Source of the DNA: Gemmatimonadota bacterium
Lineage (GTDB): Bacteria > Gemmatimonadota > Gemmatimonadetes > Longimicrobiales > Gaopeijiaceae
Length of the DNA stretch: 64,000 nt
Assembly (NCBI GenBank): GCA_039589315.1
Contig: JBDHHQ010000003.1
Location: 96,001 to 160,000 of the forward strand
Direction of reading: 5' to 3'
Part shown: positions 23,663 through 63,925 of the stretch, one piece after another
Numbering within the stretch: position 1 is the first letter of the stretch
Layout of the letters: each line of letters begins with the position of its first letter
Translations under genes and position numbers: made by a program
The notes under the pieces: model-generated
What the model was told of the DNA's origin: nothing
What the model saw: only the letters and a program-made list of their open reading frames with translations
Database searches by the model: none

Positions 23663-23791
23663 GTCGTCTCGGATCCGACCCACGTCGTCGGTGCCGGGCG
23701 ACGTGCCGACCACGTCGCGAACGGCAGCCGCGCGCCCGTGTTTCAGCCTCGCCCAAGAGGGCCATGCGGGAACCCGGCGGGTACATCCGAG

Positions 23792-26290
23792 ATGAGCGCA
23801 GACCTTCGAGGGAGAGCCCCCGTGGCCGAATCCAACGATACCGGGGACCGGGGGGCGGCCGAGAACGCCCTGTCCGGGTCCCCCACACCGCGCCGCGCAG
23901 ACGACCCCGAAGCCCGAGCGCTCCGGGGGGGCGCGGAATCCGCGGCTGGGAGCGAGGGCGATGGGGCGCCTTCGCCCAGGCTACGCACCGACTTCGTGCG
24001 TGCCCAGGTCGAGGAGGACAACCGCACGGGCCTGTATGGTGGGAGGGTGCATACGCGGTTCCCGCCGGAGCCCAACGGATTCCTCCACATCGGTCACTCC
24101 AAGTCGATCTGCCTGAACTTCGGGATCGCGGAAGAGTACGGGGGCGCCTGCAATCTCCGCTTCGACGACACGAACCCGGAGACCGAGGACATGGCCTACG
24201 TCCGGGCCGCGGAGAAGGACATCCGCTGGCTGGGGTTCGAGTGGGACGGCCTCTTCTTCGCCAGCGACTACTTCGAGCAGCTCTACGACTTCGCCGAGAC
24301 GCTGATCCGCAAAGGCAAGGCCTACGTCGACAGCCTGACGGAGGAGGAAATCCGGGAACACCGCGGGACGGTGACGGAGCCGGGCCGTCCGAGTCCGTAC
24401 CGGGATCGCTCGGTGGAGGAGAACCTGGACCTGTTCCGGCGCATGCGGGCCGGTGAGTACGAGGACGGAGCCCACGTGCTCCGGGCCAAGATCGACATGG
24501 CCTCGCCCAACATGATCATGCGCGACCCGGTGCTGTACCGGATCCGTCACGCGAGTCACTACCGGACCGCCGACGAGTGGTGCATCTACCCGCTCTACGA
24601 CTTCACCCACTGCCTCTCCGACGCCCTGGAAGACATCACCCACTCGGTGTGCACGCTCGAGTTCGAGAACAACCGGGAGCTGTACGACTGGGTGCTGGAC
24701 GAAGTGGGGTACACGGACCCCCGCCCCCATCAGTACGAGTTCAACCGGCTGAACCTGGACTACACCGTCACGAGCAAGCGCAAGCTCATTCCGCTGGTCG
24801 AGGAAGGGCGCGTCAGCGGTTGGGACGATCCGCGGATGTCCACCCTGGCCGCGTTTCGGCGGCGCGGGGTCACGCCTGAGGCCATCCGGGCGTTTTGCGA
24901 CATGATCGGCGTCGTCAAGAGCGACAGCCGTGAGGATCTGGCCAAGCTGGAGTACGCCATCCGCGACGATCTCAACCGGAAGGCCCCCCGCGTCATGGGC
25001 GTGCTCGAGCCGCTGCGCGTGGTCGTCACGACCTTCCCCGATGAAGAGACCGACTGGCTGGATGCGCCGTACTATCCCCGCGACGTACCGCTCGAGGGGT
25101 CCAGGAAGGTGCCGTTCACCCGGGAGATCCTCATCGAACGGTCGGACTTCCAGGAGGATCCTCCCAAGGGATGGCGCCGTCTGGCACCGGGGTGGGAGGT
25201 GCGCCTTCGATACGGGTACGTCATCGAGTGCGAAGAAGTCGTGAAGGACGACAGTGGCCGCGTCGTGGAGCTCCGCTGCTCGCACGACCCGGGGAGTCGG
25301 GGCGGCAGCGCGCCTGACGGGCGCAAGATCAAGGGAACGATCCACTGGGTGTCCGCCGACCACGCCCTCCCCGCCGAAGTGAGGCTCTACGACCGGCTGT
25401 TCACCGAGCCGGATCCCCAGGCGGGCCCCGAGGGCACCGACCTCAGCGACTTCGTGAACCCCGAGTCCCTGGTGGTGGCGGCAGGCGCCCGGCTGGAGCC
25501 GAGCATTGCCGAAGACGATCCGGATACCCGGTACCAGTTCGAGCGTTTGGGCTACTTCTGGCGAGACCCAGTGGACTCGACGGCCGACGCTCTCGTGTTC
25601 AATCGGATCGTTACGCTGCGCGATACGTGGGCCAAGCGGGCCACCCAGGTACCGGAGCCCACCGCCCCGACGAAGCGGACGGAGGGCGGTACCGCACCAC
25701 GGACCGAGGCGGGCGCTTCCCGACGGCCGTCGCCTCCGACCCTGGGGCCAGAGGGACAGGCCCGCTTCGACAGATTCAGGGGCGAGCTCGGCGTCTCCCA
25801 CGACGATGCCCGCGGCCTGGCGGCCAACCCCGTCCTTTCGCGCTATCTCGACGAGGCGGTGGACGCCGGGGCCCCGGCCCCCGCCGCGGCGAGGTGGCTG
25901 GTGAACGAGCTTCTACGGGAAGCCAAGGACACGCCCCTCGAATCGTTGCCGGTGAGCGGGGTGAACGTGGCCGAGCTGCTCTCGCTCGTGGCCGATGGCA
26001 CCCTGTCCGTGGGTATCGCCCGAGAGGTGTTCGCCGACATGGTCGGAGGCGGCGGACGCCCGTTCGATATCGTGGAGCGGCGAGGCCTGCGCCAGATTTC
26101 CGACGACGACGCCCTGTCTCCCCTCATCGCCACGGTCGTGGACGAGCACCCCGACGAGGTCCGACGCTACCGGGAAGGCAAGTCGGCCCTGCTGGGGTTT
26201 TTCGTGGGCAAGGTCATGCGAGGCTCCGGTGGCAAGGCCAACCCCGAGCGCGTGCGGGCTCTGCTCGCGCGGGCGCTGGAGGAGGTCTAG
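23792..26290 (+). CDS. glnS: Glutamine--tRNA ligase with C-terminal GatB/YqeY domain
   Basis: TRFPPEPNGFLHIGH, LRFDDTNP, TSKRK, FERLGYF; C-terminal ..LLGFFVGKVMRGSGGKANP YqeY domain. Start uncertain. Confidence 0.95.
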   Translation: MSADLRGRAPVAESNDTGDRGAAENALSGSPTPRRADDPEARALRGGAESAAGSEGDGAPSPRLRTDFVRAQVEEDNRTGLYGGRVHTRFPPEPNGFLHIGHSKSICLNFGIAEEYGGACNLRFDDTNPETEDMAYVRAAEKDIRWLGFEWDGLFFASDYFEQLYDFAETLIRKGKAYVDSLTEEEIREHRGTVTEPGRPSPYRDRSVEENLDLFRRMRAGEYEDGAHVLRAKIDMASPNMIMRDPVLYRIRHASHYRTADEWCIYPLYDFTHCLSDALEDITHSVCTLEFENNRELYDWVLDEVGYTDPRPHQYEFNRLNLDYTVTSKRKLIPLVEEGRVSGWDDPRMSTLAAFRRRGVTPEAIRAFCDMIGVVKSDSREDLAKLEYAIRDDLNRKAPRVMGVLEPLRVVVTTFPDEETDWLDAPYYPRDVPLEGSRKVPFTREILIERSDFQEDPPKGWRRLAPGWEVRLRYGYVIECEEVVKDDSGRVVELRCSHDPGSRGGSAPDGRKIKGTIHWVSADHALPAEVRLYDRLFTEPDPQAGPEGTDLSDFVNPESLVVAAGARLEPSIAEDDPDTRYQFERLGYFWRDPVDSTADALVFNRIVTLRDTWAKRATQVPEPTAPTKRTEGGTAPRTEAGASRRPSPPTLGPEGQARFDRFRGELGVSHDDARGLAANPVLSRYLDEAVDAGAPAPAAARWLVNELLREAKDTPLESLPVSGVNVAELLSLVADGTLSVGIAREVFADMVGGGGRPFDIVERRGLRQISDDDALSPLIATVVDEHPDEVRRYREGKSALLGFFVGKVMRGSGGKANPERVRALLARALEEV

Positions 26291-52239: not shown

Positions 52240-53337
52240 TCATCCGGCCGGCACTTGGTCACCTCGCCGCGCCAGCCACACGCCCCAGGTCAGGACCGGG
52301 ATCACGTACACCACCAGGAACGCCCACGTCAGCGTGCCGTAGCCCCGGGCGATCAAGTCCACCAGGCCGACCCGGGCCAATAGGGCCGCACCCAGCAGGA
52401 ACCCGACTGCCACGACGGGCCGCACCAGCCTCGGCAAGTGAGTGCCGCGCTCTGCGAAGACGGACTCCACCCGCTCGTTGACCGCGTGGATGAAGCCGGT
52501 TCCGGTTTCCACCAGGGTGCCGAAGAGGACGAGCTGGAAGGTGAGCTGGAAGGTACGCGATCCCAGCGCCTCGAGGACGAAGTTGGCCGGCACCGCCCGG
52601 TCGAGAACGGCCGGGTAGAGACCCACCATGGCCACGTAGAACAGGAAGGCCGGCACGATGGCGATGACGCCGGCCAGCAGTCCCGCCCCCACGGCTTCGC
52701 GGCGGGTCTCGATGTGGCGGACGGCGAACAGAACGGCCGGAATGACCGCCAGGTTGTAGGCCGCGTACTCGACGCCGCCCCGGAGCCAGGCCCCCTCGAG
52801 CCCGCTGGCCGAAAACGCGGCCGCGATGTCACCGCCGAAGCGGGCCACCGCCCAGATCACCAGCACGAGGTAGACGGCGTACAGCAGAAACGACCACCCG
52901 GCCAGGAATCGCTCGATCAGGTCACTCCCGAAGAACACGAGCACGCCTACGGCCGCCATGATGCCCACGACACCCACGGCATACGGCAAGCCGAAGGTCT
53001 CCTCGAGGATGGATCCCGCGGCCGCGGCGACGACCGCCAGCACGATGAGCATCAACAGGATGTAGCAGACTTCGAAGACGACCCACCCCCGGCCGAGGAG
53101 ACCCTTGAAGAACGTGCGGTAGTCGTACGCACCCCACAGGCGAGCCAGCTCGAACGTCACCGCACAGACCAGGCTCCAGATGACGGCCGACACGAGCAGC
53201 ATCGCGGCCAGGCCGCTGACGGGTCCGAGCAGCAGAAAGAACTCGACGATTTCCCGGCCCGTGCCGTAGCCGCCGGCGATCACCACTGACTGGAAGACCA
53301 TGCCGGGGAGGAAGTACTTTTTGAAGACCAGCGGCAC
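52240..53337 (-). CDS. YkvI-like polytopic membrane protein (putative transporter)
   Basis: IAGGYGTGREIVEFF motif; about 10 TM helices; LIARGYG. Confidence 0.8.
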   Translation of the reverse strand: MPLVFKKYFLPGMVFQSVVIAGGYGTGREIVEFFLLLGPVSGLAAMLLVSAVIWSLVCAVTFELARLWGAYDYRTFFKGLLGRGWVVFEVCYILLMLIVLAVVAAAAGSILEETFGLPYAVGVVGIMAAVGVLVFFGSDLIERFLAGWSFLLYAVYLVLVIWAVARFGGDIAAAFSASGLEGAWLRGGVEYAAYNLAVIPAVLFAVRHIETRREAVGAGLLAGVIAIVPAFLFYVAMVGLYPAVLDRAVPANFVLEALGSRTFQLTFQLVLFGTLVETGTGFIHAVNERVESVFAERGTHLPRLVRPVVAVGFLLGAALLARVGLVDLIARGYGTLTWAFLVVYVIPVLTWGVWLARRGDQVPAG

Positions 53338-53480
53338 GCGGCCAGCTCCTGGGTTCTCGGGGAACGATTGGGTCGAAGGTGGTGTTCAGCCGGAGTGGGA
53401 CGCAACGGGCCAGGCGCGGTGAGACCGCCGTCCACGGGAACCGGACGATCCTGGACCAGACCAGAATGCGGAGGGCGTTG

Positions 53481-54062
53481 ATGGAGGATTCACGGGTGAC
53501 TCGGGCCGGATGGGCGCTCGCGCTGGTCTCGACCGTGGGAGTGGGCGCTTGCGGTGGGGGGGTGGCGGTGAACTCGGACTACGACCCGGGCGCGGACTTC
53601 GCCAGCTACAGCACCTACGCCTGGGCCGAGCGGACGGACCGGGGCGACGACGATCCCCGGGTCTACAACGCCATCACGATGCAGCGCGTGAAGACCGCCG
53701 TGGACCGGGCCCTCGGCGCCAAGGGCTACACCGAAGCCAGCGGCGCCGCCGACTTCTACGTCGCGTGGCATGGGGCCATCGAAGGCCAGATGAGCTACCA
53801 GACCATCAACAGCCACTACGGCTACGGCTGGGGCTGGTACGGCGGCATGGGGGTCGGCACGTCGAATACCTACGTCAACGAATGGGACGAGGGGACGCTT
53901 CTCGTCGACATCGTCGACGCCGGCACCAATCAACTGGTCTGGCGCGGCACGGCGACCGGGACGGTCGAGCCCGACCTGTCTCCGCAGGAGTCCCAGGCCC
54001 GACTCGACGACGCGGCGGCCAAGCTGTTGCAGACCTTTCCGCCCGAAGGCACCGGCGGCTGA
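53481..54062 (+). CDS. DUF4136 lipoprotein
   Basis: Lipobox VGAC; DYDPGADF..Y.TYAW, EGTLLVDIVDA..NQLVWRG, FPP. Confidence 0.9.
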   Translation: MEDSRVTRAGWALALVSTVGVGACGGGVAVNSDYDPGADFASYSTYAWAERTDRGDDDPRVYNAITMQRVKTAVDRALGAKGYTEASGAADFYVAWHGAIEGQMSYQTINSHYGYGWGWYGGMGVGTSNTYVNEWDEGTLLVDIVDAGTNQLVWRGTATGTVEPDLSPQESQARLDDAAAKLLQTFPPEGTGG

Positions 54063-54202
54063 CGCGCCTGGCGGCACGGCCGTAAGGGGTCGTCCGCCAC
54101 CCGACCGTCCTCCTCCCCCTCCCCACCTTCGCGGGGCCCCGACGATGAAACGGGCGGCCCGCGCCCGGCCCCGGTGTCCAAGCGGCCAGGGGCCCCGAGT
54201 CG

Positions 54203-55597
54203 TCAGGGGTTCCCCATCCCTATTACGCGGCCCCCGATGAAGAGCTGGAATCCCAACAGCAGCTTGACGCGGAAGAAGGAGATGCTCCCGTCCGGGATCG
54301 GGGCGATAACGCCCCCACCCCCCGTGTCGCCGTCCGCCACGCCCTCGTGTGGGATCGTGTCCTGTCCGTAGGCCAGGGCGGTCCCGAGGGTCAGGTCGAA
54401 GGACCGGAAGTGCAGGCCGGCGCCCAGGGTCAGGTGGTACAGATCCCAGGTGGCCACGCTCACCGTCTGACGGTCGCCCGGAGGCGCCGCCGAAAAATCG
54501 GTACGGAGGCTGCCGTATCCGGTGACCGCTTCAGAGAACGCATACTCGGCGCCGGCACCGGCGTTGAACACGCTCCTGAGCTCGCCCTGCAGGGGAATGC
54601 GTAGCGTGTCGCCCTGCGTCTGACTGCGGAACGCCTGGGTCTCCACCACGTCGTAGGTCTCCACGGACCCGAACCACTCGGCCGTCACATGGACCGCACC
54701 GCCGGTCAACGAGTAGCTCACTCCGGCCGAAAGGGACCAGGGCGTCTTCCAGCTCGCACGCAGTTCCTTCTGGCTGGAAGCGGCGAGTCGCGGCTCCTGT
54801 TCAGAGCCCGACGGTGTGTGTTCGAAGGTGGTGCCGTTGGACGCCGACTCGCCGGAGCCGGAAAGCCGGAGGGCGGGCGTCGTGACCGCGCCCCCGAGCC
54901 CCCACTTCCCGACTTCCGCCTTGATGCCCGCCTTCCACAGAAGGCGCCAGGCCGTGTACTCGAAGTCCTGACTCTGGAAGGACCCCCTGAGCTCGGGCAA
55001 CTGTGAGAACGACTCGAGAACCCGATTCAGCTCCGTGCTCTGGGATCGAATGCTCAGGAAGTGGGTGATGCCCACGCCCACGTGGGGTGCGACGGGATAG
55101 GCCCACGACAGCCCGACCCAGGTCTCCGTCACGCGGTGGTCCAACACCGCCTCCTGCACACCGCCCACGCTGTCCGGGTCGGTGTCCACGACGGCGCGCG
55201 GGTCCACCAGCCTCCCCGCCAGCCGCGTACGGAGTCTGTTCCGGGTGAAGGCCGAGTACGACAGACTGCTCTTCCCGAACCAACCCAGGGGGAGATTGCC
55301 CGCGATGAAGTCCGGACTCACGTCCAGACGGCGGGAGTGGAGATCGGGCTCGGTCGCGACACCGCTCAACGTGATCCACGTGTGCTGGAATCCGTTGGCC
55401 GTGATGAGGAACGCCGGCTGATCTACGAGCCCGAGCGCCCCCGGGTTGTAGAACGCCGCGGACGGATCGTCCACGGCGCCGACGATGAGGCCGCCGAGCA
55501 GATCGCCCCGCGCCCCGAACTGCTCCGTCCAGTGGTGGGCGTCCTGGGCGAGGAGCGGACCGGGCGGGAACGCGGCCAGGACGATCAGAAGTGCCAT
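54203..55597 (-). CDS. FadL/TodX-like outer-membrane beta-barrel
   Basis: Signal peptide; GAR...LGG...G.VDDPSAAFYNPGAL N-terminal motif; amphipathic strands. Start may be 55636. Confidence 0.7.
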   Translation of the reverse strand: MALLIVLAAFPPGPLLAQDAHHWTEQFGARGDLLGGLIVGAVDDPSAAFYNPGALGLVDQPAFLITANGFQHTWITLSGVATEPDLHSRRLDVSPDFIAGNLPLGWFGKSSLSYSAFTRNRLRTRLAGRLVDPRAVVDTDPDSVGGVQEAVLDHRVTETWVGLSWAYPVAPHVGVGITHFLSIRSQSTELNRVLESFSQLPELRGSFQSQDFEYTAWRLLWKAGIKAEVGKWGLGGAVTTPALRLSGSGESASNGTTFEHTPSGSEQEPRLAASSQKELRASWKTPWSLSAGVSYSLTGGAVHVTAEWFGSVETYDVVETQAFRSQTQGDTLRIPLQGELRSVFNAGAGAEYAFSEAVTGYGSLRTDFSAAPPGDRQTVSVATWDLYHLTLGAGLHFRSFDLTLGTALAYGQDTIPHEGVADGDTGGGGVIAPIPDGSISFFRVKLLLGFQLFIGGRVIGMGNP

Positions 55598-55811
55598 TCG
55601 TCGGACGTACGGCGCAGCCGGAAGGTGATGGGCCATGGAGGCGTCGAGGACTCGTGGGAGTGCCAATCGGGGTCCGCGCTCGCCGCGCCCCCCGTTCGTC
55701 CCCGAATGTGGATCGCCTGGCCACCGGCCGCCACCGCAAGGGGGGCTGGCTCTTCCTCAGGGCTCCGGTGTACCCTGGCCTCGATCCCCGCCCATCCATG
55801 CGGAGTACGCC

Positions 55812-56267
55812 GTGCCCCAACGCGACTACATCCTCCGAATGATCGAGCAGATGGGGCAGGTCCTCATCGCCCTCCGCAACCGGGTCCTGGGCCGTTCGGT
55901 CACCACCCAGGAGCTCGCCGAAGGGTTCTCGCAGGTCGTGGCCCACACCGGTATCGACGTCGACCTGGCCAGGTCGGCGACGCCGGAGACGCTCCAGCTC
56001 CTGGTGGCTCCGACGGGAGAGGTGGAGCCCGGACGGTGTTGGCTCGTTGCGGAGATGCTGACGGTGGACGGACTTCACGCCGAGTCCGAAGACCGCGAGG
56101 CCGATGCCGTCGCTGCCTACGAGCGAGCGATGGCGCTCTTCAGCCTGCTGGAGCCGGGCGGCGCATTCCTCGTGGGACTGCCGGAGGCGGCCGAGCGCAT
56201 CGAGGACCTGACCCAGCGCCTCGCGCGGCTTCCGGACGCCCATCGAAACGGCTCCCCGCCGGCCTGA
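55812..56267 (+). CDS. DUF6483-like helical protein
   Basis: N-terminal QRDYILRMIEQMGQVL. Confidence 0.7.
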   Translation: MPQRDYILRMIEQMGQVLIALRNRVLGRSVTTQELAEGFSQVVAHTGIDVDLARSATPETLQLLVAPTGEVEPGRCWLVAEMLTVDGLHAESEDREADAVAAYERAMALFSLLEPGGAFLVGLPEAAERIEDLTQRLARLPDAHRNGSPPA

Positions 56268-56276
56268 CCCACGCCC

Positions 56277-58019
56277 GTGTCGCACCCCGAGAGCCTCCAG
56301 CACGCCTTCGAGCGCGTCGCCGCCGACTTCCCCGATCGGGGCATCGCGGTCTACGACCGTCGAGGCCGGCACCGCGAACACCGGCGCTATCCGGAGGTCG
56401 TTGCAGCGGCCCGGGCGTTCGCGGGCAAGTGGGCAGCGCTCGGCGCCTCGCCCGGTGAGCCGGTCCTGGTGAGCCTGCCGACGTCGTGGGACTGGTTCGA
56501 CGCCTGGCTGGGCGCCCTCTTCCTGGGCGCCCACCCGGTCGCCATGGCGCCGGCGCCGGCGTTCGGAGCGGCCGAGGGTCACGTGCGGAGGATCGCGAGC
56601 ATCCTGGAGGGGTTGGGCGCCGGTCGGGCGGTGGTATCCGACGCGGTGCGCGACGAAGCCCGCCGCCTCGGGGAAGAGCACGTCGTTCGCGCTGCGGTGA
56701 CCCCGAGCGAGTTGAGGACGGTCACGCCGGCCGCAGTCGTACCCCCGGCCCCCGCCCCGGGCGACCTGGCGTTCCTGCAGCTCACCAGCGGGTCGACCGG
56801 CCTACCGCGGGCGGTCATGATCCCCCATCGCGCCGCGCTCCACAACGCCATGGCCATCGACTACGCCATCGGCGCCCCGCAGAACACGCAGGCGCGAGCG
56901 TTCACGGAGTCCATCGTGTCGTGGCTGCCCCTCCATCACGACATGGGACTGGTCGGGTGCTTTCTCCTGGCCGTGAGGTACGGGTACGCGCTGACCCTCT
57001 TCCAGCCCGCCACTTTTCTGGCACGCCCTCACCTCTGGCTCGACGAGATGAGCGGCGGCCCCGCGTGCATGACCACGGCTCCCAACTTCGCCTACCAGCT
57101 CTGCGTGGAGCGGGTCGCCGAGCGTCGCCTCGAGGAGCTGGACCTCGCGTCGGTGCGGAACGCCATGACGGGCGCAGAGATGATCCGTCCCGAGACCGTG
57201 GGTGCCTTCCTCGACCTCTTCGGACCCCGGGGCTTCGGCACGTCGACCTTCCGCCCCTGCTATGGGCTCGCGGAAGCCACGCTGGCCGTCACCTTCGACC
57301 AGTCGGGGGGAGAGGTACGCACTCGGCCGGCCCCCGAGGACACCGATCGATCGCTGGGCCTTCGGGACGTCGTGTGCAACGGGCCGCCGGTGCTCGACAC
57401 CGAGGTGCGGATCTGCGGCCCGGGCGACGTGCCGCGACCGGAGGGTGCGGTGGGCGAGGTCCAGATCCGCGGCCCCGGGGTGTTCGGGGGATACCTCCAC
57501 GAACCCGAGGCCACGGCCGCGACCCTGCGAAAGGGGTGGCTCTGCACCGGGGACCTGGGCTTCCTGGACGCGGGGGAGCTCTACCTGACGGGCCGCACCA
57601 AGGACCTGCTCATCATCCGCGGCCACAACTTCATGCCCCACGAGCTGGAGTGGGTCGCCGAGGGAGTCACAGGGGGTGGCGGCGCGGTCCGGGCGGGCGC
57701 CTTTTCCGTGGCCGCAGGCCCCACGGGCGAGGAAGCCGTGCTGGTCGTCGAGGCACACGACGTCGATGCGGCCCGCCTCGGAGCCCTGGGCCGGGAGATC
57801 CGGGACTCCGTTGGCCGGAGCCTCTCACTGACGTTGGCCGACCTGGTGTTCGTGCGACGAGGGCGACTGCCCCGCACCACAAGCGGCAAGGTCAAGCGCC
57901 GGCAGCTCCGCGAGCGGTACCTGCGCGGAGAGCTCGACCGACTCGAGGTGCCTGGAGGCCAGGGCGGTGGTTCCGGCGCCCGCACGCCGCGCAACGAGAA
58001 TCACGAGGGCACGCCATGA
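56277..58019 (+). CDS. Fatty acyl-AMP ligase (FAAL)
   Basis: FLQLTSGSTG, SWLPLHHDMGL, PNFAY, PCYGLAEATLAVT, TGDLG, PRTTSGK. Confidence 0.9.
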   Translation: MSHPESLQHAFERVAADFPDRGIAVYDRRGRHREHRRYPEVVAAARAFAGKWAALGASPGEPVLVSLPTSWDWFDAWLGALFLGAHPVAMAPAPAFGAAEGHVRRIASILEGLGAGRAVVSDAVRDEARRLGEEHVVRAAVTPSELRTVTPAAVVPPAPAPGDLAFLQLTSGSTGLPRAVMIPHRAALHNAMAIDYAIGAPQNTQARAFTESIVSWLPLHHDMGLVGCFLLAVRYGYALTLFQPATFLARPHLWLDEMSGGPACMTTAPNFAYQLCVERVAERRLEELDLASVRNAMTGAEMIRPETVGAFLDLFGPRGFGTSTFRPCYGLAEATLAVTFDQSGGEVRTRPAPEDTDRSLGLRDVVCNGPPVLDTEVRICGPGDVPRPEGAVGEVQIRGPGVFGGYLHEPEATAATLRKGWLCTGDLGFLDAGELYLTGRTKDLLIIRGHNFMPHELEWVAEGVTGGGGAVRAGAFSVAAGPTGEEAVLVVEAHDVDAARLGALGREIRDSVGRSLSLTLADLVFVRRGRLPRTTSGKVKRRQLRERYLRGELDRLEVPGGQGGGSGARTPRNENHEGTP

Positions 58020-58249
58020 CGGACGACAACAGGGTCAAGGCGCTCCACATCCTCGCCGAGATCAGCGGAGTGGACCGTGACGAGCTGGAGCCGGGCATGT
58101 CGCTGGCCGGTGACCTGGGCATCGACTCGCCCAGGGCACTCCAGCTGCTCGTGGATCTGGAAGAGGGGCTCGACATCGAGATCTCGGACGAGGACGCCGC
58201 TCGCATGGACACGGTGGGCGACGTCCTGCGCTTCCTGGAGACCCGGTGA
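58016..58249 (+). CDS. Acyl carrier protein
   Basis: 77 aa, acidic; DLGIDS phosphopantetheine site; LEE..DIEISDE..TVGD; ATGA overlap with FAAL. Confidence 0.92.
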   Translation: MTDDNRVKALHILAEISGVDRDELEPGMSLAGDLGIDSPRALQLLVDLEEGLDIEISDEDAARMDTVGDVLRFLETR

Positions 58250-58322
58250 CGGGCGCGTTACCTCCTCGCCTCGGATCCCCCACGGGGATCGGTCGCGACG
58301 GTCACGCCCGTGGACGCGGGGC

Positions 58323-59072
58323 GTGAGACTCCGACCGGACACACGGGCGGGGCGCCTGGCCCTGGGCGTCGCCGGCTGGGTCCTCCGCCGGGCGATCGGC
58401 CTCCTGTCCCGGACCTGGAGCACCCGCATCGTGGACGGGGCGGTGCATCTGGAAGCGGTGCTGGCACGACCCGAGCCCGTCATCCTCACGTTCTGGCACA
58501 ACCGGGCGGTCATGGCGACGCCCTTCCTCAAGGCCCGCCTCCACGACGCCGGTAGCACCGTGGCCGTGCTGGCCAGCGCTTCCCGCGACGGGGAGCTGGC
58601 GACTCGGACCCTCCGCCCGTGGGGCGTACACGTCGTGCGGGGATCTGCCACCCGGGGAGGACGCGAGGCCCTCTGGGGCACGTACCGGGCGCTCCGGAAG
58701 CTGGGCGCGTCTCCGGTCGTGATCCCGGACGGTCCTCAGGGTCCGCCCTACGTCTACAAGGCCGGGGTCCTGCACCTGGCCCGCCTGTCGCGAGCGCCCA
58801 TCCTGCCCCTGGCCTTCGCGTGCGACCGCTACTGGAGCATCGGATCCTGGGACCGGCTCATGGTCCCCCGCCCGTTCGCGCGGGTCTTCGTGGCGCTGGC
58901 GCCGCTGCAGCGTATCCCCAGGGAGCTGGACGACGATGACGTGGAGGCCGCCCGAGTCCGGCAGGAGACGCTCCTCAACGAGGCGTCCAGGACGGCGGAG
59001 ACGGCTGCCGGAATACCCGCATCGCTCGCCCCGCCGCCGGGGGCAGATGAGGGACCGGATCTGGCGCCCTGA
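58323..59072 (+). CDS. DUF374 / LpxJ-like lysophospholipid acyltransferase
   Basis: FWHNR, LASASRDGE, VVRGSATRGG, PDGPQGP, SWDRLMVPRPF. Start uncertain. Confidence 0.88.
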   Translation: MRLRPDTRAGRLALGVAGWVLRRAIGLLSRTWSTRIVDGAVHLEAVLARPEPVILTFWHNRAVMATPFLKARLHDAGSTVAVLASASRDGELATRTLRPWGVHVVRGSATRGGREALWGTYRALRKLGASPVVIPDGPQGPPYVYKAGVLHLARLSRAPILPLAFACDRYWSIGSWDRLMVPRPFARVFVALAPLQRIPRELDDDDVEAARVRQETLLNEASRTAETAAGIPASLAPPPGADEGPDLAP

Positions 59073-59082
59073 GGGGCGGAGC

Positions 59083-59808
59083 CTACGGCGGCGGTGGCGC
59101 GACCTCGATCCGCACGATGTGGTCCAACTCCGGGAAGTCGCGGTCCAGATGGGCGTTCCCTTCGGTCAGCATGCGCTCCTGGTCCCCGCGGCGCATGCCG
59201 CCACCGGCATCCTCGCCGAAGCCGCTGTACAGCCCGTCGACCACGTCCATGCCGGTGGTCACGCGACCGAACGGGGCGAACCCGGTGGCGTCGAGCTGCG
59301 TGTTGTCCACCAGATTGATGTAGATCTGCGTGTGGCGCGTGTCCGGCTCGGTGAAGGCATAGGCCAGCGTGCCCCGCTCGTTGCTCGCGACGACCGGGTC
59401 GTCGACCAGCGTGCGGCCCCGCCAGGCGGCGGTGACCTCAGGGTCGCCGGGGATGCCGAATTGGGCGATGAACCCCTCCACGACGCGGAAGAAGCGGGAG
59501 TCGTCGTAGAAGCCGTGGCGCGCCAGGTTGTAGAACCGGTCCGCCCCGCGGGGCGCCCAGGCCCGCACCACCTGTACCGAGAACTCCCCCTTCGTCGTCT
59601 CGAAGCGTGCCAGGAAGGTGTCCGGCGCCGCGGTTCGCCACGGCGGCGCCTCGGGATCCATGAGGACCGCGCGCAGGTCGGTGGCGGCGTCCGCCGGGGC
59701 CGCGCCTGCGGCCACCTCGCCTGTCTCCGCTTCGTCGGTCCGATCGGCCGGACCACAGGCTGCGTACGCCACCGACAAGCTGACCACCAATAGGAGCTTG
59801 CCGCTCAT
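59083..59808 (-). CDS. Cyclophilin-type peptidyl-prolyl isomerase, lipoprotein
   Basis: Lipobox YAAC; FETTKG, WAPRG.DRF, FFRVV.GFIAQFG, QIYINL.DN..LD..GFAPFG. Confidence 0.92.
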   Translation of the reverse strand: MSGKLLLVVSLSVAYAACGPADRTDEAETGEVAAGAAPADAATDLRAVLMDPEAPPWRTAAPDTFLARFETTKGEFSVQVVRAWAPRGADRFYNLARHGFYDDSRFFRVVEGFIAQFGIPGDPEVTAAWRGRTLVDDPVVASNERGTLAYAFTEPDTRHTQIYINLVDNTQLDATGFAPFGRVTTGMDVVDGLYSGFGEDAGGGMRRGDQERMLTEGNAHLDRDFPELDHIVRIEVAPPPP

Positions 59809-60788
59809 GGACGGCTGGCCCTCCCTCGCGTCTTCAGTCCCGTGAGAGCGCCGTCGACCAGGTTGTAGGCGGCCTTGCGCGACAGTCCCTCCGGATCGCG
59901 TTCGCCCCACGGTGTCGAGGCCAGGCCCAGAGCGGCCACCTTCTCGTACTCGAACATGACCGCGATGGCCCGGGCGAGCTCTTCGCTGGTCGGGCCGTCG
60001 GGGACGGTCAGGGGGTGCCCTGCCACCTCGCGAGGATCCAGCACGTCCATGTCGACGTGGACGTAGATCACGTCTGTCAGATCCGACAGCCGCTCCATCT
60101 GGGCGCGCACCGCCGCACCGGCCCTCCGGATGTCGGCGGTCGACAGCGTCTGGGCCTCCGAGCGGTCAAGGAGATCCTGCTCGAGTGGATCCACGTCCCT
60201 GAGCCCGCCCATCACGATATGCCGGGTGGGCACGGGCGGATCCAGGCCTGACTTCCGCCGCAGGTTCTCCAGCGCAAGGCCCGCGGAGACCGCCACGGGC
60301 ATCCCCCCGAGCATCCCGCTCAACGTCGTCTCCGGCGTGTTGAAGTCGCCGTGCGCATCGATGAACACGAGACCGACCTTCAGGGGCAAGTCGTCGGATC
60401 CGGACTCCTGAAGCCCACCCAACACCCCGATCACCGACGTGCAGTTGGAGAGGAGACCCACCGACACGAAGCCCTCTCGCCGGTTGTCCGCCACGAGCTC
60501 GGCCAGGTGACCGTTGGCGAGACCCATACGGTGCCATTCACCGTAGTCGTCTTCCTCGTCCGGGAGCAGGCGCACCGTCGTCGTCGGCCCCAACTCCACG
60601 CCCCGGTCCTGCAGGCTCGCCTCGAGCCCCCCCGCCTGAAGGTAGTCCGGGCCTCCGGAGAGCTCGGGCACGTTGCGCGCCCCGGAGTACGGCATCTTGA
60701 CCAACGCGACGCGGGGAGCCCGCTCCTGTGCTGCAAGCGGGCCGAGGCCCAGCAGAACCAGCAGGACGCCTGTTCCCAAGGCTTTCAT
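59805..60788 (-). CDS. Arginase/ureohydrolase family protein with signal peptide
   Basis: FIDAHGDFNTPET, YVHVDMDVLD; signal MKALG..LAAQ. Alternative GTG start at 60815. Confidence 0.88.
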   Translation of the reverse strand: MKALGTGVLLVLLGLGPLAAQERAPRVALVKMPYSGARNVPELSGGPDYLQAGGLEASLQDRGVELGPTTTVRLLPDEEDDYGEWHRMGLANGHLAELVADNRREGFVSVGLLSNCTSVIGVLGGLQESGSDDLPLKVGLVFIDAHGDFNTPETTLSGMLGGMPVAVSAGLALENLRRKSGLDPPVPTRHIVMGGLRDVDPLEQDLLDRSEAQTLSTADIRRAGAAVRAQMERLSDLTDVIYVHVDMDVLDPREVAGHPLTVPDGPTSEELARAIAVMFEYEKVAALGLASTPWGERDPEGLSRKAAYNLVDGALTGLKTRGRASRP

Positions 60789-60811
60789 CACGATCCTCCG
60801 TGTCTCCTGAT

Positions 60812-61690
60812 TCACATCGCGGGCCCGGGACGCCCGAGGTGAGGGTGTGTGCTATCCTGCGGCGTGCCGCCCGCCTGCGCCAACCGTCCCAGGAAACGGG
60901 TAACGCACTCGACCCACCGCTCCGGCCGCTCCAGGTGCACCGCGTGGCCCGCGTCGGGGACGGGCTCGTGGACCGCGTTCGGGATCGCCGTGGCCAATTG
61001 CCGGCCGATGTCCGTGAACTTGCGGTCCAGAGCCCCGGTGAGCACGAGGGTCGGCGCGGTGATTCCGCTGAGGCGGTCCCAGAAGGAGGGCTGCGCGCCG
61101 GTGCCGAGACCCCGCAGACAGGCCGCCAAGGCCGTCGGGTCGTTCCCAAGCCGGCGGGAACGCTCGGTCTCGCGGGTCGCCTCGCTCAACGCCAGTTGCG
61201 TCGCGAAGATGGGTTGGGACATCCATGCGTCCACGAAGGCCGGGACCCCGCGCGCCAGGATCAGACGGGCTAGCCGGTCGTCTCGATGGCGTCGGGCTGC
61301 TCGCTCGGCGGGGGTGGCCAACCCCGGCGACGCGCTTTCCAGCACCAACGCTTCCACTCGCTCGGGGCGCAGCACCGCCGCCGCCAGGGCGATGCGACCG
61401 CCCATGGAATAGCCCATCCAGAGCGCGCGTTCGGCCGAAGCACGGTCCAGGATCGCGGTCAGGGCGTCCAGGACCGCCGTCACTCGGTACGCTTCGGGCG
61501 CGGCGGGTCCGTCCGCGGCTCCGTGTCCGGGCAGATCCGGCACCAGCAGGCGCCGATGAGGTGCGACTCCGTGCAGGCAGGCCTCGGGCCAAGCGAGGCC
61601 CGACCCGGTGAACCCGTGGATCAGAAGGGCCGGCGGCCCGGAGCCCAGGGAGCGGACCGGCAGCTCCTCCGCCGCGGTGTCACCGCTCAA
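60812..61690 (-). CDS. menH: MenH (SHCHC synthase)-like alpha/beta hydrolase
   Basis: LIHGFTGS, DLPGHG, GYSMGGR, LESASPG, R...D, G.LDRKF, AGHAVHLE; TTG start overlapping the ankyrin stop. Confidence 0.75.
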   Translation of the reverse strand: MSGDTAAEELPVRSLGSGPPALLIHGFTGSGLAWPEACLHGVAPHRRLLVPDLPGHGAADGPAAPEAYRVTAVLDALTAILDRASAERALWMGYSMGGRIALAAAVLRPERVEALVLESASPGLATPAERAARRHRDDRLARLILARGVPAFVDAWMSQPIFATQLALSEATRETERSRRLGNDPTALAACLRGLGTGAQPSFWDRLSGITAPTLVLTGALDRKFTDIGRQLATAIPNAVHEPVPDAGHAVHLERPERWVECVTRFLGRLAQAGGTPQDSTHPHLGRPGPAM

Positions 61691-62442
61691 CCCCGCTCTC
61701 CACCACGGCGCTCTTCGGCCGCCAGCAGCTCGGCGATCTCGGCGTGGCCGCCTTCCTCTGCCCAACTCCGAGGCGTCGCGCCGAATCTGGGATCCCTCGC
61801 TGTCAGGGCCGCGCCCTGCTCAACCAGCCAGGTGACCATCTCCTCGTGGCCGCCCAGAGCCGCCCAATGCAGTCCCGAGGCACCGAAGAAGCCGGTGGCG
61901 TCGATCTGGGCCCCCTTCTCCGCAAGCAGGCGGGCCACCTGCAGGTGACCGTTCCGAGCCGCCGCGTAGAAGGCGTCCGACACCACATCTCCCCTTCGGT
62001 ACGCCGTGTCGGCCGGCCACTGGTCCGGAGGCGCCACGGTCAGTCGAGCCTGCGCGGAGCCGGGCACCGGCTCCGTGCCCTGAAACGACGCCGCCACGGT
62101 CTCCAGGTCCCCGAGGCTCGCGGCCGTCCACAGGTTCAATCCAGCGGCGCCTCGGTCCAGCAACACGGTGGCTACTCGGCGGCTCCCCATTGTAGCGGCC
62201 CACTGGAACGGGGTGTGGCCCCACTCGCAGCGCGCCTCCAGGGAGGATCCTCGATCCAGCAACGTCCGAGCCGCCTCCGCCGCGTCGACCTCGGCGGCCT
62301 CGTGGAGGAGCGTCTTCTCCGAGGCTCCCCTGGCGTGCACCAGCTCCGGGTCCTCGTCGAGGAGTCCCAACAGGGCCTCCGTGTCCCCCTCCCGGAGTGC
62401 CCGTGCGGCCCGGCTCAGCCGGGTCTCTGCGCCGCGCGTCAC
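61687..62442 (-). CDS. Ankyrin repeat protein
   Basis: TLLHEAA, GHTPFQWAA, AARNGH, SGLHWAALGGH, GATPRSWAEEGGH. Confidence 0.92.
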   Translation of the reverse strand: MTRGAETRLSRAARALREGDTEALLGLLDEDPELVHARGASEKTLLHEAAEVDAAEAARTLLDRGSSLEARCEWGHTPFQWAATMGSRRVATVLLDRGAAGLNLWTAASLGDLETVAASFQGTEPVPGSAQARLTVAPPDQWPADTAYRRGDVVSDAFYAAARNGHLQVARLLAEKGAQIDATGFFGASGLHWAALGGHEEMVTWLVEQGAALTARDPRFGATPRSWAEEGGHAEIAELLAAEERRGGERG

Positions 62443-63293
62443 CGTGAATCGGCCCAGGCGTCGGTGAACGCCTCGATCGACTCGAGCGCGGCGTGCAGGG
62501 CGCGGCCGTCGGCGTCGGCGGCGGGCTCGTACGCGCTCAACGTCAGTGACGTGACCGCGGCTTCGCGTGCGATGCCCGACAGAATGGTCACGAGCTCACC
62601 CAGTCGCAGGCCGTCTGGAGCCGCGAAGTGGTTGGCCCGGCCATCCCGTGGGTCCAGGACGTCCAGATCCAGATGGACGTGCAGCGAACGGACCCGCCGC
62701 CTCATCTCCTCGAGGACGGCGGCCAACCCTTGGCTGACGATGGCGGGCTCGAGCAGTCGCACGGCAGTATTCAGAATGTGGACAGCTTCGGGCGGGTCGA
62801 GATCCCGCACGCCCAGCAGGACGAGGTCCGCGTCGGACAGCGGCGCGAAGCCGGGGACCGAAGCGGCCATCGTCTGCCAACAGCGTCCCCCCAGTACCGA
62901 CAGGGCCATGCCGTCCAGGAAGCCACTCGCGGAGGTCTCCGGTGTGTTGAGGTCCCCGTGGCTGTCGAACCAGAGCAGCCCCACTGGGCGGTCCAGCCCC
63001 GAGACCACGCCCACGGACGCGAAGCAGTTTCCGGAGAGGATCAGGGGCAATCGCCCGTGGGCCCGAGCCTCGCGCACATGGTGAGACAGCGCCCGGGCCA
63101 GCGAGAACGCGGTAGCGGTCTCGGCCTGAATGGGGCCGCCCTCCGCCTCGACAGTCACGATCGTGACCTCGTGTCCCCGCGCCTCGAGACGCCGTGCCAA
63201 CCCTGCCTCCAGGATTCGTTCCGGCCCCGCGCCCATGCGAACGCCGCGTGCGCCCGAATCGTACGGAACGCTGAGGATCTGGACACCGATCAT
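62439..63293 (-). CDS. Arginase/ureohydrolase family protein (cytoplasmic)
   Basis: VPYDSG..GMGAGP, WFDSHGDLNTPET, HVHLDLDVLD. Confidence 0.9.
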   Translation of the reverse strand: MIGVQILSVPYDSGARGVRMGAGPERILEAGLARRLEARGHEVTIVTVEAEGGPIQAETATAFSLARALSHHVREARAHGRLPLILSGNCFASVGVVSGLDRPVGLLWFDSHGDLNTPETSASGFLDGMALSVLGGRCWQTMAASVPGFAPLSDADLVLLGVRDLDPPEAVHILNTAVRLLEPAIVSQGLAAVLEEMRRRVRSLHVHLDLDVLDPRDGRANHFAAPDGLRLGELVTILSGIAREAAVTSLTLSAYEPAADADGRALHAALESIEAFTDAWADSR

Positions 63294-63294
63294 G

Positions 63295-63906
63295 TCAGGC
63301 TCCCTGTCGCTCGCTCCGAAGGCGGGGAATGAACCGGGGCACCGCGGCCTGGTACCGGCGATACTCGTCACCGAACCGGTCCACCAGCTCCCGCTCTTCC
63401 AGAACCACCACCGCGTAGAGCGCCGCCAATGTGAAGGCCGCGGTCAGGTACACGACCAGATAATTGGTCATCAGGGCCGTTCCCACGACGCTCACCGAGA
63501 TCCCCAGATACCGGGGATGTCGCACGCGGCCGTAGATCCCGTCGCGCAAGAGCCGGCCCCGGTCGCCGGCCGACTGCAGCTCGGGCACGCCCGCGAGGAC
63601 CCTGAACTTCAAGTGGTCCTTCGCCAGCTTGTCGATCCAGACCCCGACGGCGAACAGGCCGAGCCCCGGGATCGCCAGTGGCCACGCCAATCCGAGGTCC
63701 ACGGCCATGACGGGATCCCTGAGGTAGAACACGGCACCTGCCATGATCAGCATCGGCGGTATGAGGATCCAGTAGGTGCGGGCGACGCCGACCCGTCGCC
63801 AGAACCCGATCAACGGATGCACCACGATCCAGAACAGCACTGCCGGCGGAAGGAAGGCCGTCATCCACAAGCCCAGGAAGTACCGCACGCCCTCCAGGAT
63901 ACTCAT
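63295..63906 (-). CDS. Isoprenylcysteine carboxyl methyltransferase / PEMT family membrane protein
   Basis: L...GIY..VRHPRY, EERELV.RFG.EY..Y...VPRFIP. Confidence 0.9.
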   Translation of the reverse strand: MSILEGVRYFLGLWMTAFLPPAVLFWIVVHPLIGFWRRVGVARTYWILIPPMLIMAGAVFYLRDPVMAVDLGLAWPLAIPGLGLFAVGVWIDKLAKDHLKFRVLAGVPELQSAGDRGRLLRDGIYGRVRHPRYLGISVSVVGTALMTNYLVVYLTAAFTLAALYAVVVLEERELVDRFGDEYRRYQAAVPRFIPRLRSERQGA

Positions 63907-63925
63907 TGTCCCTGACAACTATATG

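Follow-up and report, generated by a model that had tools for sequence, protein, structure and literature searches.

A fatty acyl-AMP ligase, acyl carrier protein and LpxJ-type acyltransferase operon in a Gemmatimonadota genome: a candidate CoA-independent branch of lipid A late acylation

In textbook accounts, the acyl chains of lipid A come from the acyl-acyl carrier protein (acyl-ACP) of type II fatty acid synthesis (FAS-II); AcpXL/LpxXL is the one well-known exception, and its chain is still elongated by FAS-type enzymes. A locus in a Gemmatimonadota metagenome-assembled genome (MAG) raises the question of whether a free fatty acid could be placed on lipid A by another route, independent of coenzyme A (CoA). 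The locus lies in a stretch of 64,000 nucleotides (assembly GCA_039589315.1, contig JBDHHQ010000003.1, positions 96,001 to 160,000), hereafter the window, whose G+C content is about 70%. Here a FAAL gene (FAAL, fatty acyl-AMP ligase) is followed by genes for an ACP and for an acyltransferase of the DUF374 family, to which the lipid A acyltransferase LpxJ belongs. We consider it probable that this operon is a branch that provides, independently of CoA, the acyl donor for the late (secondary) acylation of lipid A. The gene identities, the gene order and its conservation, the phylogenetic placement, the conservation of catalytic residues and the emptiness of the native slot are direct observations; the ACP as donor, lipid A as acceptor and the position acylated are what we infer.

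The operon and its predicted enzymes

The stop codon of the FAAL gene and the start codon of the ACP gene overlap in an ATGA at 58016-58019, and only 9 nt separate the end of a small upstream open reading frame (ORF) from the FAAL start. The four plus-strand genes (small ORF, FAAL, ACP and DUF374; Table 1) therefore look like one operon, the small ORF probably being co-transcribed with the FAAL gene. The spacer between ACP and DUF374 measures 73 nt and holds no significant hairpin (RNA fold z-score -1.13; 22 of 200 shuffled sequences fold equally well). Scans of positions 53300-60000, uninformative at 70% GC, found no promoter-like site and a single terminator-like site, inside the barrel gene described below, which is fewer than in shuffled sequences. 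A first-pass annotation of this DNA had noted the ATGA overlap, the DUF374 gene behind it and the lack of polyketide synthase or nonribosomal peptide synthetase (PKS/NRPS) genes, and all three points stand: the DUF374 match exceeds the family cut-off, and ketosynthase, condensation and PKS acyltransferase domains are absent from the 48 window ORFs scanned against Pfam. These 48 belong to a set of 52 that pass a codon-position GC filter; the other four are short and overlapping, and the unscanned gaps are all below 1.7 kb.

Among the NCBIfam models, the ligase scores best with PRK09192 ('fatty acyl-AMP ligase'), reaching 362 bits where the cut-off is 600 bits. FAAL-type models score 362, 257 and 239 bits and FadD-type CoA-ligase models about 95 bits, all of these scores falling below the curated cut-offs. 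Its best solved relatives are the loading domain of a 'Polyketide synthase' (7r7e-g), a 'Fatty Acyl-Adenylate Ligase' (3pbk), 3kxw and FadD23, FadD32 and FadD28; the FAAL-type matches in the PDB (3pbk and the three FadD proteins among them) have E values from 3e-70 to 5e-33, compared with 1e-27 for 4-coumarate-CoA ligases. A FAAL-specific insertion in the N-terminal domain has been described (PMC11837247; here and below, articles are cited for the parts of their text that were available). Compared with five AMP-binding paralogues of its own genome, the window protein carries a 14-residue insertion after the sequence YGLAE. Judging by that description, we take this to be the canonical FAAL insertion site. 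The protein, which is the only FAAL-type enzyme encoded in its genome, is thus by its sequence closer to FAALs than to acyl-CoA ligases, and it is predicted to load an ACP rather than CoA. The ACP encoded next to it belongs to a close-knit family: it shares 47-77% identity with its counterparts behind FAAL orthologues in 10 other loci, and only 35-36% with the products of the two other ACP genes of its own genome.

The third protein matches PF04028 over residues 77-141 with 70.4 bits, for a cut-off of 26.8. Six of its residues (W58, H59, D89, D136, W176 and D177) are invariant across 29 DUF374 homologues. In Rickettsia typhi LpxJ, mutation of W60, H61, D86, D132, W172 or D173 abolished activity (PMC6148475), and the six invariant residues of the window protein match these published positions in the same order and with near-identical spacing. 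Its AlphaFold2 model (pLDDT 90.7) was compared with solved structures by Foldseek, where all 15 matches listed through rank 18 are PlsC, LpxM, PatA or GPAT (TMq 0.43-0.49), with PlsC on top. The protein lacks the HX4D motif: H59 is followed by NRAVM, with no D or E at +5. The DUF374 family as a whole is described as lacking this motif of phospholipid acyltransferases, and every DUF374 enzyme assayed is a lipid A late acyltransferase, according to the same source (PMC6148475). We predict from these sequence features that the window protein is an LpxJ-like late acyltransferase.

A model of the complex between the ACP and the DUF374 protein reached a score of 0.73, the best of three controls reaching 0.01. 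It thereby passed the mark of the modelling tool, which by the tool's own statement was attained by 116 of 157 solved complexes and by 2 of 215 mismatched pairs; because we supplied our own alignments, these counts apply only roughly. The runs agreed in at least 97% of the contacts, and the pLDDT of the partner was at least 87. On the side of the ACP, the modelled interface comprises residues 38-46, with Ser38 and helix II; on the side of the acyltransferase, it comprises residues 108-122 and 147-155, the invariant RGSxxRGG block. The model fits an acyl-ACP-dependent transfer.

Genomic context, phylogeny and the empty native slot

The genome that contains the window has an otherwise ordinary set of lipid A genes: it encodes LpxC, LpxB, LpxK, WaaA and one protein of the LpxL family, and exactly one match to PF04028, which is the window gene. 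The lipid A genes are dispersed, with an msbA-lpxL pair on contig C13, lpxC…lpxB-lpxK on C38 and waaA on C160; in the pair, outside the window (C13:85904-88434), the sole LpxL-family gene adjoins the best MsbA-like gene. DUF374 is found in 37 of 40 relatives from the same family and order. In all 27 loci fetched from genera of the order other than g1 and g6 it stands between lpxB and lpxK, and in many cases stop and start codons overlap there; this count includes one locus (L026, genome G025) that is from an unpublished genome and becomes 26 of 26 without it, and a Pfam check recovered both flanking genes in 11 of the 27 and LpxB alone in one more. Neither WaaA nor LpxL was found beside DUF374 in the 1.5-kb flanks of these Gemmatimonadota relatives, where the context is lpxB and lpxK. 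In the window's own genome, in its congener (G001) and in the genome G006, lpxB adjoins lpxK and the DUF374 slot is empty. Since the rest of the Raetz pathway is kept and the copy in the cassette is the only DUF374, the comparison argues that this copy does the lipid A job. With the native lpxB-DUF374-lpxK copy lost and the cassette copy the only one, the genome amounts to a natural experiment on the acceptor.

Where the cassette copy came from was addressed with a tree of 76 DUF374 sequences obtained by a quick search. The 27 lpxB/lpxK-linked copies of the relatives group in a single clade (SH-aLRT 93). The window copy falls in a separate clade (SH-aLRT 96) together with 10 other FAAL-linked copies, and so branches with copies from Acidobacteriota and Planctomycetota rather than with its own phylum. 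The same clade also holds the copy of G006 and two copies from Granulosicoccaceae, and its sister group consists of three copies located in LpxI-…-LpxB-MsbA-DUF374-WaaA clusters (L052, L054). Constraining all Gemmatimonadota copies to group together was rejected by 57 log-likelihood units (p-AU 0.006), the constrained group having been named after the tree had been seen. At E<=1e-90, the window FAAL had no match in 400 other sampled Gemmatimonadota genomes, and among the 40 nearest relatives an orthologue is present only in the congener (81% identity), six other genomes having matches of at most 40%. The simplest history suggested by these sequences is that the FAAL-ACP-DUF374 cassette was gained by horizontal transfer and the native late acyltransferase lost.

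Some further features of these DUF374 loci were recorded. One cassette-bearing assembly of 10.6 Mb contains a second, very divergent DUF374 (L097; G044:C172:9840-12261; branch length 2.9). Mla-type phospholipid-transport genes directly follow a DUF374 of the FAAL-linked clade in two loci, with MlaE in L007 (G006:C1:1285510-1289202) and STAS-MlaE-ATPase-MlaD in L050 (4521-7496). In a metagenome contig (L123:3021-7397), DUF374 is divergent from a gene for a 944-residue protein with PP-binding, AMP-binding and PlsC-type domains, an Aas-like fusion with its own carrier domain.

The first-pass annotation had proposed the conservation of the FAAL-ACP-DUF374 neighbourhood as a check on its reading, and the neighbourhood proved to be conserved in three phyla. 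A scan for DUF374 loci, made with an alignment of 10 sequences, gave 45 loci, 9 of which have a FAAL directly upstream on the same strand; these belong to Gemmatimonadota, Acidobacteriota (Thermoanaerobaculia and 'Multivoradales') and Planctomycetota. Within the Thermoanaerobaculia (the class of G042), 35 of 251 sampled genomes contain a FAAL orthologue. Thirty of these loci were fetched: an ACP follows the FAAL in 28, and FAAL, ACP and DUF374 occur together in 19. Directly upstream of the FAAL there is an MsbA-like exporter in 13 of the 30 and an AurF-like di-iron protein in 4. The exporter has MsbA_lipidA as its best NCBIfam model (520 bits, cut-off 602), a cut-off that is attained by MsbA from the sister cluster L052. 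When MsbA-FAAL-ACP-DUF374 is compared with LpxB-MsbA-DUF374-WaaA, it looks as if FAAL and ACP had been inserted between msbA and the DUF374 gene. Of five other genomes with the cassette, four have no DUF374 beyond the linked one. Closer to the window, the locus L045, from another MAG ('Gemmatimonadota bacterium'), is syntenic over seven genes with protein identities of 72-83%. A metagenome scan with a FAAL alignment returned mostly distant FAALs (31-41% identity), and since only 3 of the 80 loci kept are close orthologues, it is given little weight.

The cassette also occurs in altered forms. Two Granulosicoccaceae loci (L058:3520-7633, L060:5449-9799) encode a FAAL::ACP fusion together with a cytochrome P450, both in divergent orientation to a DUF374 gene that belongs to the clade of the window copy; downstream in L060 comes a gene of the LpxL family. 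In other sister loci, a protein of about 280 residues is encoded directly upstream of the FAAL (L046:4116-4952, L048:4127-4966, L049:4035-4892, L050:880-1737 and L185-L187, L199). Its match to Pfam AurF lies barely over the threshold, and that to the NCBIfam model 'R2-like ligand-binding oxidase' is weak. R2-like ligand-binding oxidases are a family of di-metal proteins that bind fatty-acid ligands. The presence of a di-iron (AurF/R2lox-like) oxidase or of a P450 suggests that in these sister cassettes the chain is oxidised and the free acid is then re-activated by the FAAL. A tblastn search with three AurF-like proteins gave no match in the window's own genome at E<=1e-5, and there is no oxygenase in the window; the window locus is therefore an oxygenase-free version.

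The FadL-fold barrel and neighbouring genes

Divergent from the operon, at a distance of about 215-240 nt, lies a gene for an outer-membrane protein with a signal-peptide-like N-terminus. The first-pass annotation had called it FadL-like. By sequence, no Pfam family matches it at E<=10, the family of FadL included, and in NCBIfam it shows a weak N-terminal match to PorV/PorQ (E 0.031). Its fold, on the other hand, bears out the label. An AlphaFold2 model built on 29 homologues, none of which has a Pfam match, reached a pLDDT of 80.7 and a pTM of 0.80. In a Foldseek search of the PDB, ranks 1-27 go without exception to chains that belong to the FadL family or resemble it (E 3e-14 to 6e-8; TMq 0.51-0.61), TMq being at most 0.30 from rank 28 on. 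Among them are FadL of E. coli and a homologue of it from Pseudomonas, TodX, TbuX and CymD, as well as FadL-like chains that are part of BAM complexes in Bacteroidota, and because of the latter, transport is not the only possible role of the barrel. The protein and the solved channels are 11-16% identical in sequence. Across the 29 homologues, the N-terminal segment keeps a motif, Y50-N51-P52-(G53), with little or no variation. Residues N33 and P34 of FadL are named in the PDB titles of the Foldseek matches, and the N-P motif of the barrel is presumably placed where FadL has its NPA hatch motif. As judged from the model, the barrel is FadL-like by fold.

Its membership of the cassette system is doubtful, and its tie to the cassette, which was part of the module in the first-pass annotation, is weak. 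Homologues are found in 4 of 41 genomes, the window's own included (3 of 40 relatives), and the barrel gene adjoins the FAAL gene only within the genus. In two genomes (G010, G014), a homologue of the barrel and a distantly related FAAL are encoded at unlinked positions, and no barrel homologue was found within 5-7 kb of eight FAAL-ACP-DUF374 loci from other phyla. A barrel paralogue, 33-35% identical, is located elsewhere in both genomes of the genus (G000:C35:21783-22994 in the window's genome, C177 in G001).

The small ORF at the head of the operon is 79% identical in L045 and does not occur beside the cassette in other phyla. The first-pass annotation had labelled it DUF6483 (PF20092), a label that could not be substantiated: it matches no Pfam family at E<=0.01 (as 210 residues) or at E<=10 (as 141 residues) and no NCBIfam family. 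The only trace of DUF6483 is a feature neighbour in the ESM Atlas, at rank 13, which is a cluster with PF20092 in 15% of its members. In other loci an AurF-like gene takes the position of the small ORF; a connection between the two was dismissed, as the tblastn search with AurF-like proteins was negative for the whole genome.

Table 1. Genes of the cassette and its immediate surroundings (window coordinates).
Feature	Position	Strand	Remarks
DUF4136 family protein	53379..54062	+	PF13590 E 2.9e-41; convergent with the barrel gene; syntenic in L045; neighbour only
FadL-fold outer-membrane beta-barrel, 464 aa	54203..55597	-	Most likely start ATG 55597; ORF extends to TTG 55666; divergent from the cassette
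Small upstream ORF, 142-151 aa	about 55812..56267	+	Candidate starts GTG 55812 and ATG 55839; mechanical ORF from 55635
Fatty acyl-AMP ligase (FAAL), 580 aa	56277..58019	+	GTG start; Pfam AMP-binding (PF00501) E 9.2e-53
Acyl carrier protein (ACP), 77 aa	58016..58249	+	PP-binding E 1.8e-10; Ser38 in GIDSP
DUF374/LpxJ-type acyltransferase, 249 aa	58323..59072	+	N-terminal helix; likely GTG start 58323; mechanical ORF 58077-59072; PF04028
Cyclophilin-type peptidyl-prolyl isomerase	59083..59910	-	PF00160 E 1.4e-21; convergent; downstream limit of the cassette

Of the genes that flank the locus, the DUF4136 gene has four paralogues elsewhere in the genome, and the synteny of the cyclophilin gene is restricted to the same genus. 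Farther downstream, two arginase-family genes (59805-60815 and 62439-63371) flank an alpha/beta hydrolase gene (60812-61765) and a gene for an ankyrin-repeat protein (61687-62442); these genes lie on one strand (minus, 59805-63371) with overlapping ends and are followed by a PEMT/ICMT-type methyltransferase gene (63295-63918). Elsewhere in the window, the plus strand encodes a class I Glu/Gln-tRNA synthetase of 850 residues with a C-terminal GatB/YqeY domain (23738-26290).

Proposed route, alternatives and comparison with known systems

The route that we propose would begin with the adenylation of a free fatty acid by the FAAL, which would then load the acyl chain on the phosphopantetheine at Ser38 of its private ACP. 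At the inner membrane, the membrane-associated DUF374 enzyme would then esterify a lipid A precursor with the ACP-borne chain, in the way that LpxJ acts with ordinary acyl-ACP. The cassette itself would have come by horizontal transfer, with relatives in Thermoanaerobaculia and Planctomycetota, and would have replaced the native DUF374 between lpxB and lpxK. The first-pass annotation had proposed import, activation and transfer of a fatty acid through a dedicated ACP. Its core, activation and transfer to lipid A, is supported because gene order across phyla, the lipid A context, the sole copy together with the empty slot, the LpxJ residues and the complex model all point that way. The import step and the scavenged origin of the fatty acid are speculative, because the link between barrel and cassette is not conserved outside the genus, and the coupling of import to the cassette is weak.

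Several observations weigh against the proposed route. Pfam scans of the window found no lipid A gene adjoining the cassette. The complex model does not separate the private ACP from the housekeeping ACP (AcpP), and the DUF374 tree, a quick search, contains several long branches. To our knowledge, the LpxJ enzymes assayed come only from Epsilonproteobacteria and Rickettsia, and none from the clade of the window protein. The genome G006 has a DUF374 of that clade and no FAAL at E<=1e-30, so this clade can work without a private donor. Conversely, in 11 of the 30 Thermoanaerobaculia loci a DUF374 is lacking within about 1.2 kb. Most of these carry a thioredoxin gene upstream (verified by Pfam in six: L188, L189, L190, L192, L194 and L195, and also in the metagenome contig L105) and a gene for a Wzy_C/O-antigen-ligase-like membrane protein downstream (verified in three: L191, L192 and L195); the FAAL-ACP pair can therefore serve another envelope partner. 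Among the three close metagenomic FAAL orthologues, only one is accompanied by DUF374. The observations on G006, on the 11 loci and on the metagenomic orthologues favour a looser association, in which DUF374 is the organism's LpxJ working on FAS-II acyl-ACP, while FAAL and ACP feed another envelope product (for instance via the Wzy_C-like protein) and merely share the operon. We judge such an association distinctly unlikely: the FAAL-ACP-DUF374 order recurs in three phyla and in 19 of the 30 loci, the FAAL::ACP fusion and P450 facing DUF374 in Granulosicoccaceae constitute an independent architecture, the window operon holds no other acceptor enzyme, and in the complex model Ser38 of the ACP docks on a conserved loop of DUF374.

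It is about equally improbable, in our view, that the operon serves an Aas-like membrane repair, with FAAL and ACP salvaging a fatty acid and DUF374 re-acylating a lysophospholipid or another lyso-lipid instead of lipid A. The lysophospholipid acyltransferase (LPLAT) fold of the DUF374 model, with PlsC as its top match, would agree with this, as would the Mla genes after DUF374 in L007 and L050, the ACP-AMP-binding-PlsC fusion facing DUF374 in L123 and the FAAL fusions with lysophospholipid acyltransferases that are mentioned in the literature (PMC8460268, PMC12820801). Against a phospholipid acceptor stand the assayed DUF374 enzymes, all of them lipid A late acyltransferases in the text available (PMC6148475), and the missing HX4D motif of phospholipid acyltransferases; DUF374 moreover lies inside lpx clusters in the 27 relatives and in L052 and L054, and the window copy is the only one in a genome whose native lpx slot is empty. 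The full model of the first-pass annotation, in which the barrel imports an exogenous long-chain fatty acid for the cassette, is a nested extension of the lipid A route rather than an exclusive rival, and we hold it to be unlikely, though a little less so than the two alternatives above. The FadL fold, the invariant N-P motif (its FadL counterpart, the NPA hatch, being our assumption), the divergent position close to the operon and a distribution in the family as patchy as that of the cassette speak for it; the restriction of the adjacency to the genus, the unlinked barrel and FAAL genes of G010 and G014, the lack of a barrel near the eight cassettes of other phyla and the paralogue on C35 speak against it.

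Returning to the lipid A route, a broader formulation is possible, to which we give slightly less than even chances: FAAL-ACP-LpxJ would be a mobile, hitherto undescribed branch of the Raetz pathway that bypasses both CoA and FAS-II and puts a free acid, maybe exogenous or recycled (and oxidised in the sister cassettes), on lipid A as a secondary chain, with full replacement of the native late acyltransferase and a FadL-fold channel that may supply the pool. If the route is real, free fatty acids, whether scavenged, recycled or enzymatically oxidised, would reach the outer-membrane anchor by a path that needs neither CoA nor de novo synthesis; if the replacement is complete as well, the lipid A acyl pattern in this genus would depend on the free fatty-acid pool. 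The role of FAALs would also be broader than the tie to PKS/NRPS stated in PMC8460268, according to which, in the text available, typical bacterial FAALs are always found in a PKS/NRPS context, fusions with lysophospholipid acyltransferases being mentioned. FAALs beside an LPAT/AGPAT-like domain are reported in PMC12820801, the main text of which makes no mention of 'lipid A'. Among the matches listed in searches of the literature on LpxJ/DUF374, on FAAL with lipid A and on the genomic context of FAALs, the accessible text held no description of a FAAL-ACP-LpxJ route. The window cassette is probably a variant of late lipid A acylation of the LpxJ type for which we found no published account.

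Among known systems, the nearest is LpxJ itself, the DUF374 3'-secondary acyltransferase of Helicobacter, Campylobacter, Wolinella and Rickettsia. The likeness comprises the PF04028 domain, the six critical residues, an LPLAT-type fold without HX4D and a host genome with an ordinary Raetz pathway and one LpxL-type enzyme. The assayed LpxJ enzymes reportedly use ordinary acyl-ACP, whereas the gene in the window is preceded by those for a FAAL and a private ACP, and its product falls in a separate clade that has spread horizontally; its activity, acceptor and acylated position are predictions. The AcpXL/LpxXL system of Rhizobiales, which handles a very-long-chain acid, resembles the cassette in having a dedicated ACP and a dedicated late acyltransferase for a special secondary chain on lipid A. 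In that system the chain is made on AcpXL by dedicated FAS-II-type enzymes and transferred by an enzyme of the LpxL family, while in the window a FAAL is predicted to load a free fatty acid and the predicted transferase is a DUF374 protein.

In E. coli Aas and in the split chlamydial pair AasC/LpaT, an adenylate-forming enzyme loads an ACP and an LPLAT-fold enzyme acylates a membrane lipid. The path from free fatty acid to ACP to membrane lipid, with an adenylate-forming and an LPLAT-fold enzyme, is shared with the predicted route; these systems differ in using the housekeeping ACP, a PlsC-type acyltransferase with HX4D and a lysophospholipid acceptor. The barrel has its counterparts in the FadL and TodX channels, which it resembles in predicted fold and in the invariant N-P motif, and from which it differs in the lack of a Pfam family match and in its low identity to the solved structures. 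Finally, stand-alone FAALs with an adjacent cognate ACP are known from the starter modules JamA/JamC and CylA/CylB, the latter with the dimetal halogenase CylC (PMC11837247; bioRxiv 10.1101/2021.01.05.425448). In cyanobacterial natural products, as described in the available text of the second source, FAAL-ACP pairs occur with dimetal-carboxylate enzymes that act on acyl-ACP (bioRxiv 10.1101/2021.01.05.425448). The likeness to CylC concerns the sister loci, where a di-iron carboxylate protein is encoded beside FAAL and ACP, and not the window. Those starter modules have a PKS/NRPS downstream, whereas in the window, which has none, the place of the acceptor enzyme is taken by an acyltransferase of the lipid A type.

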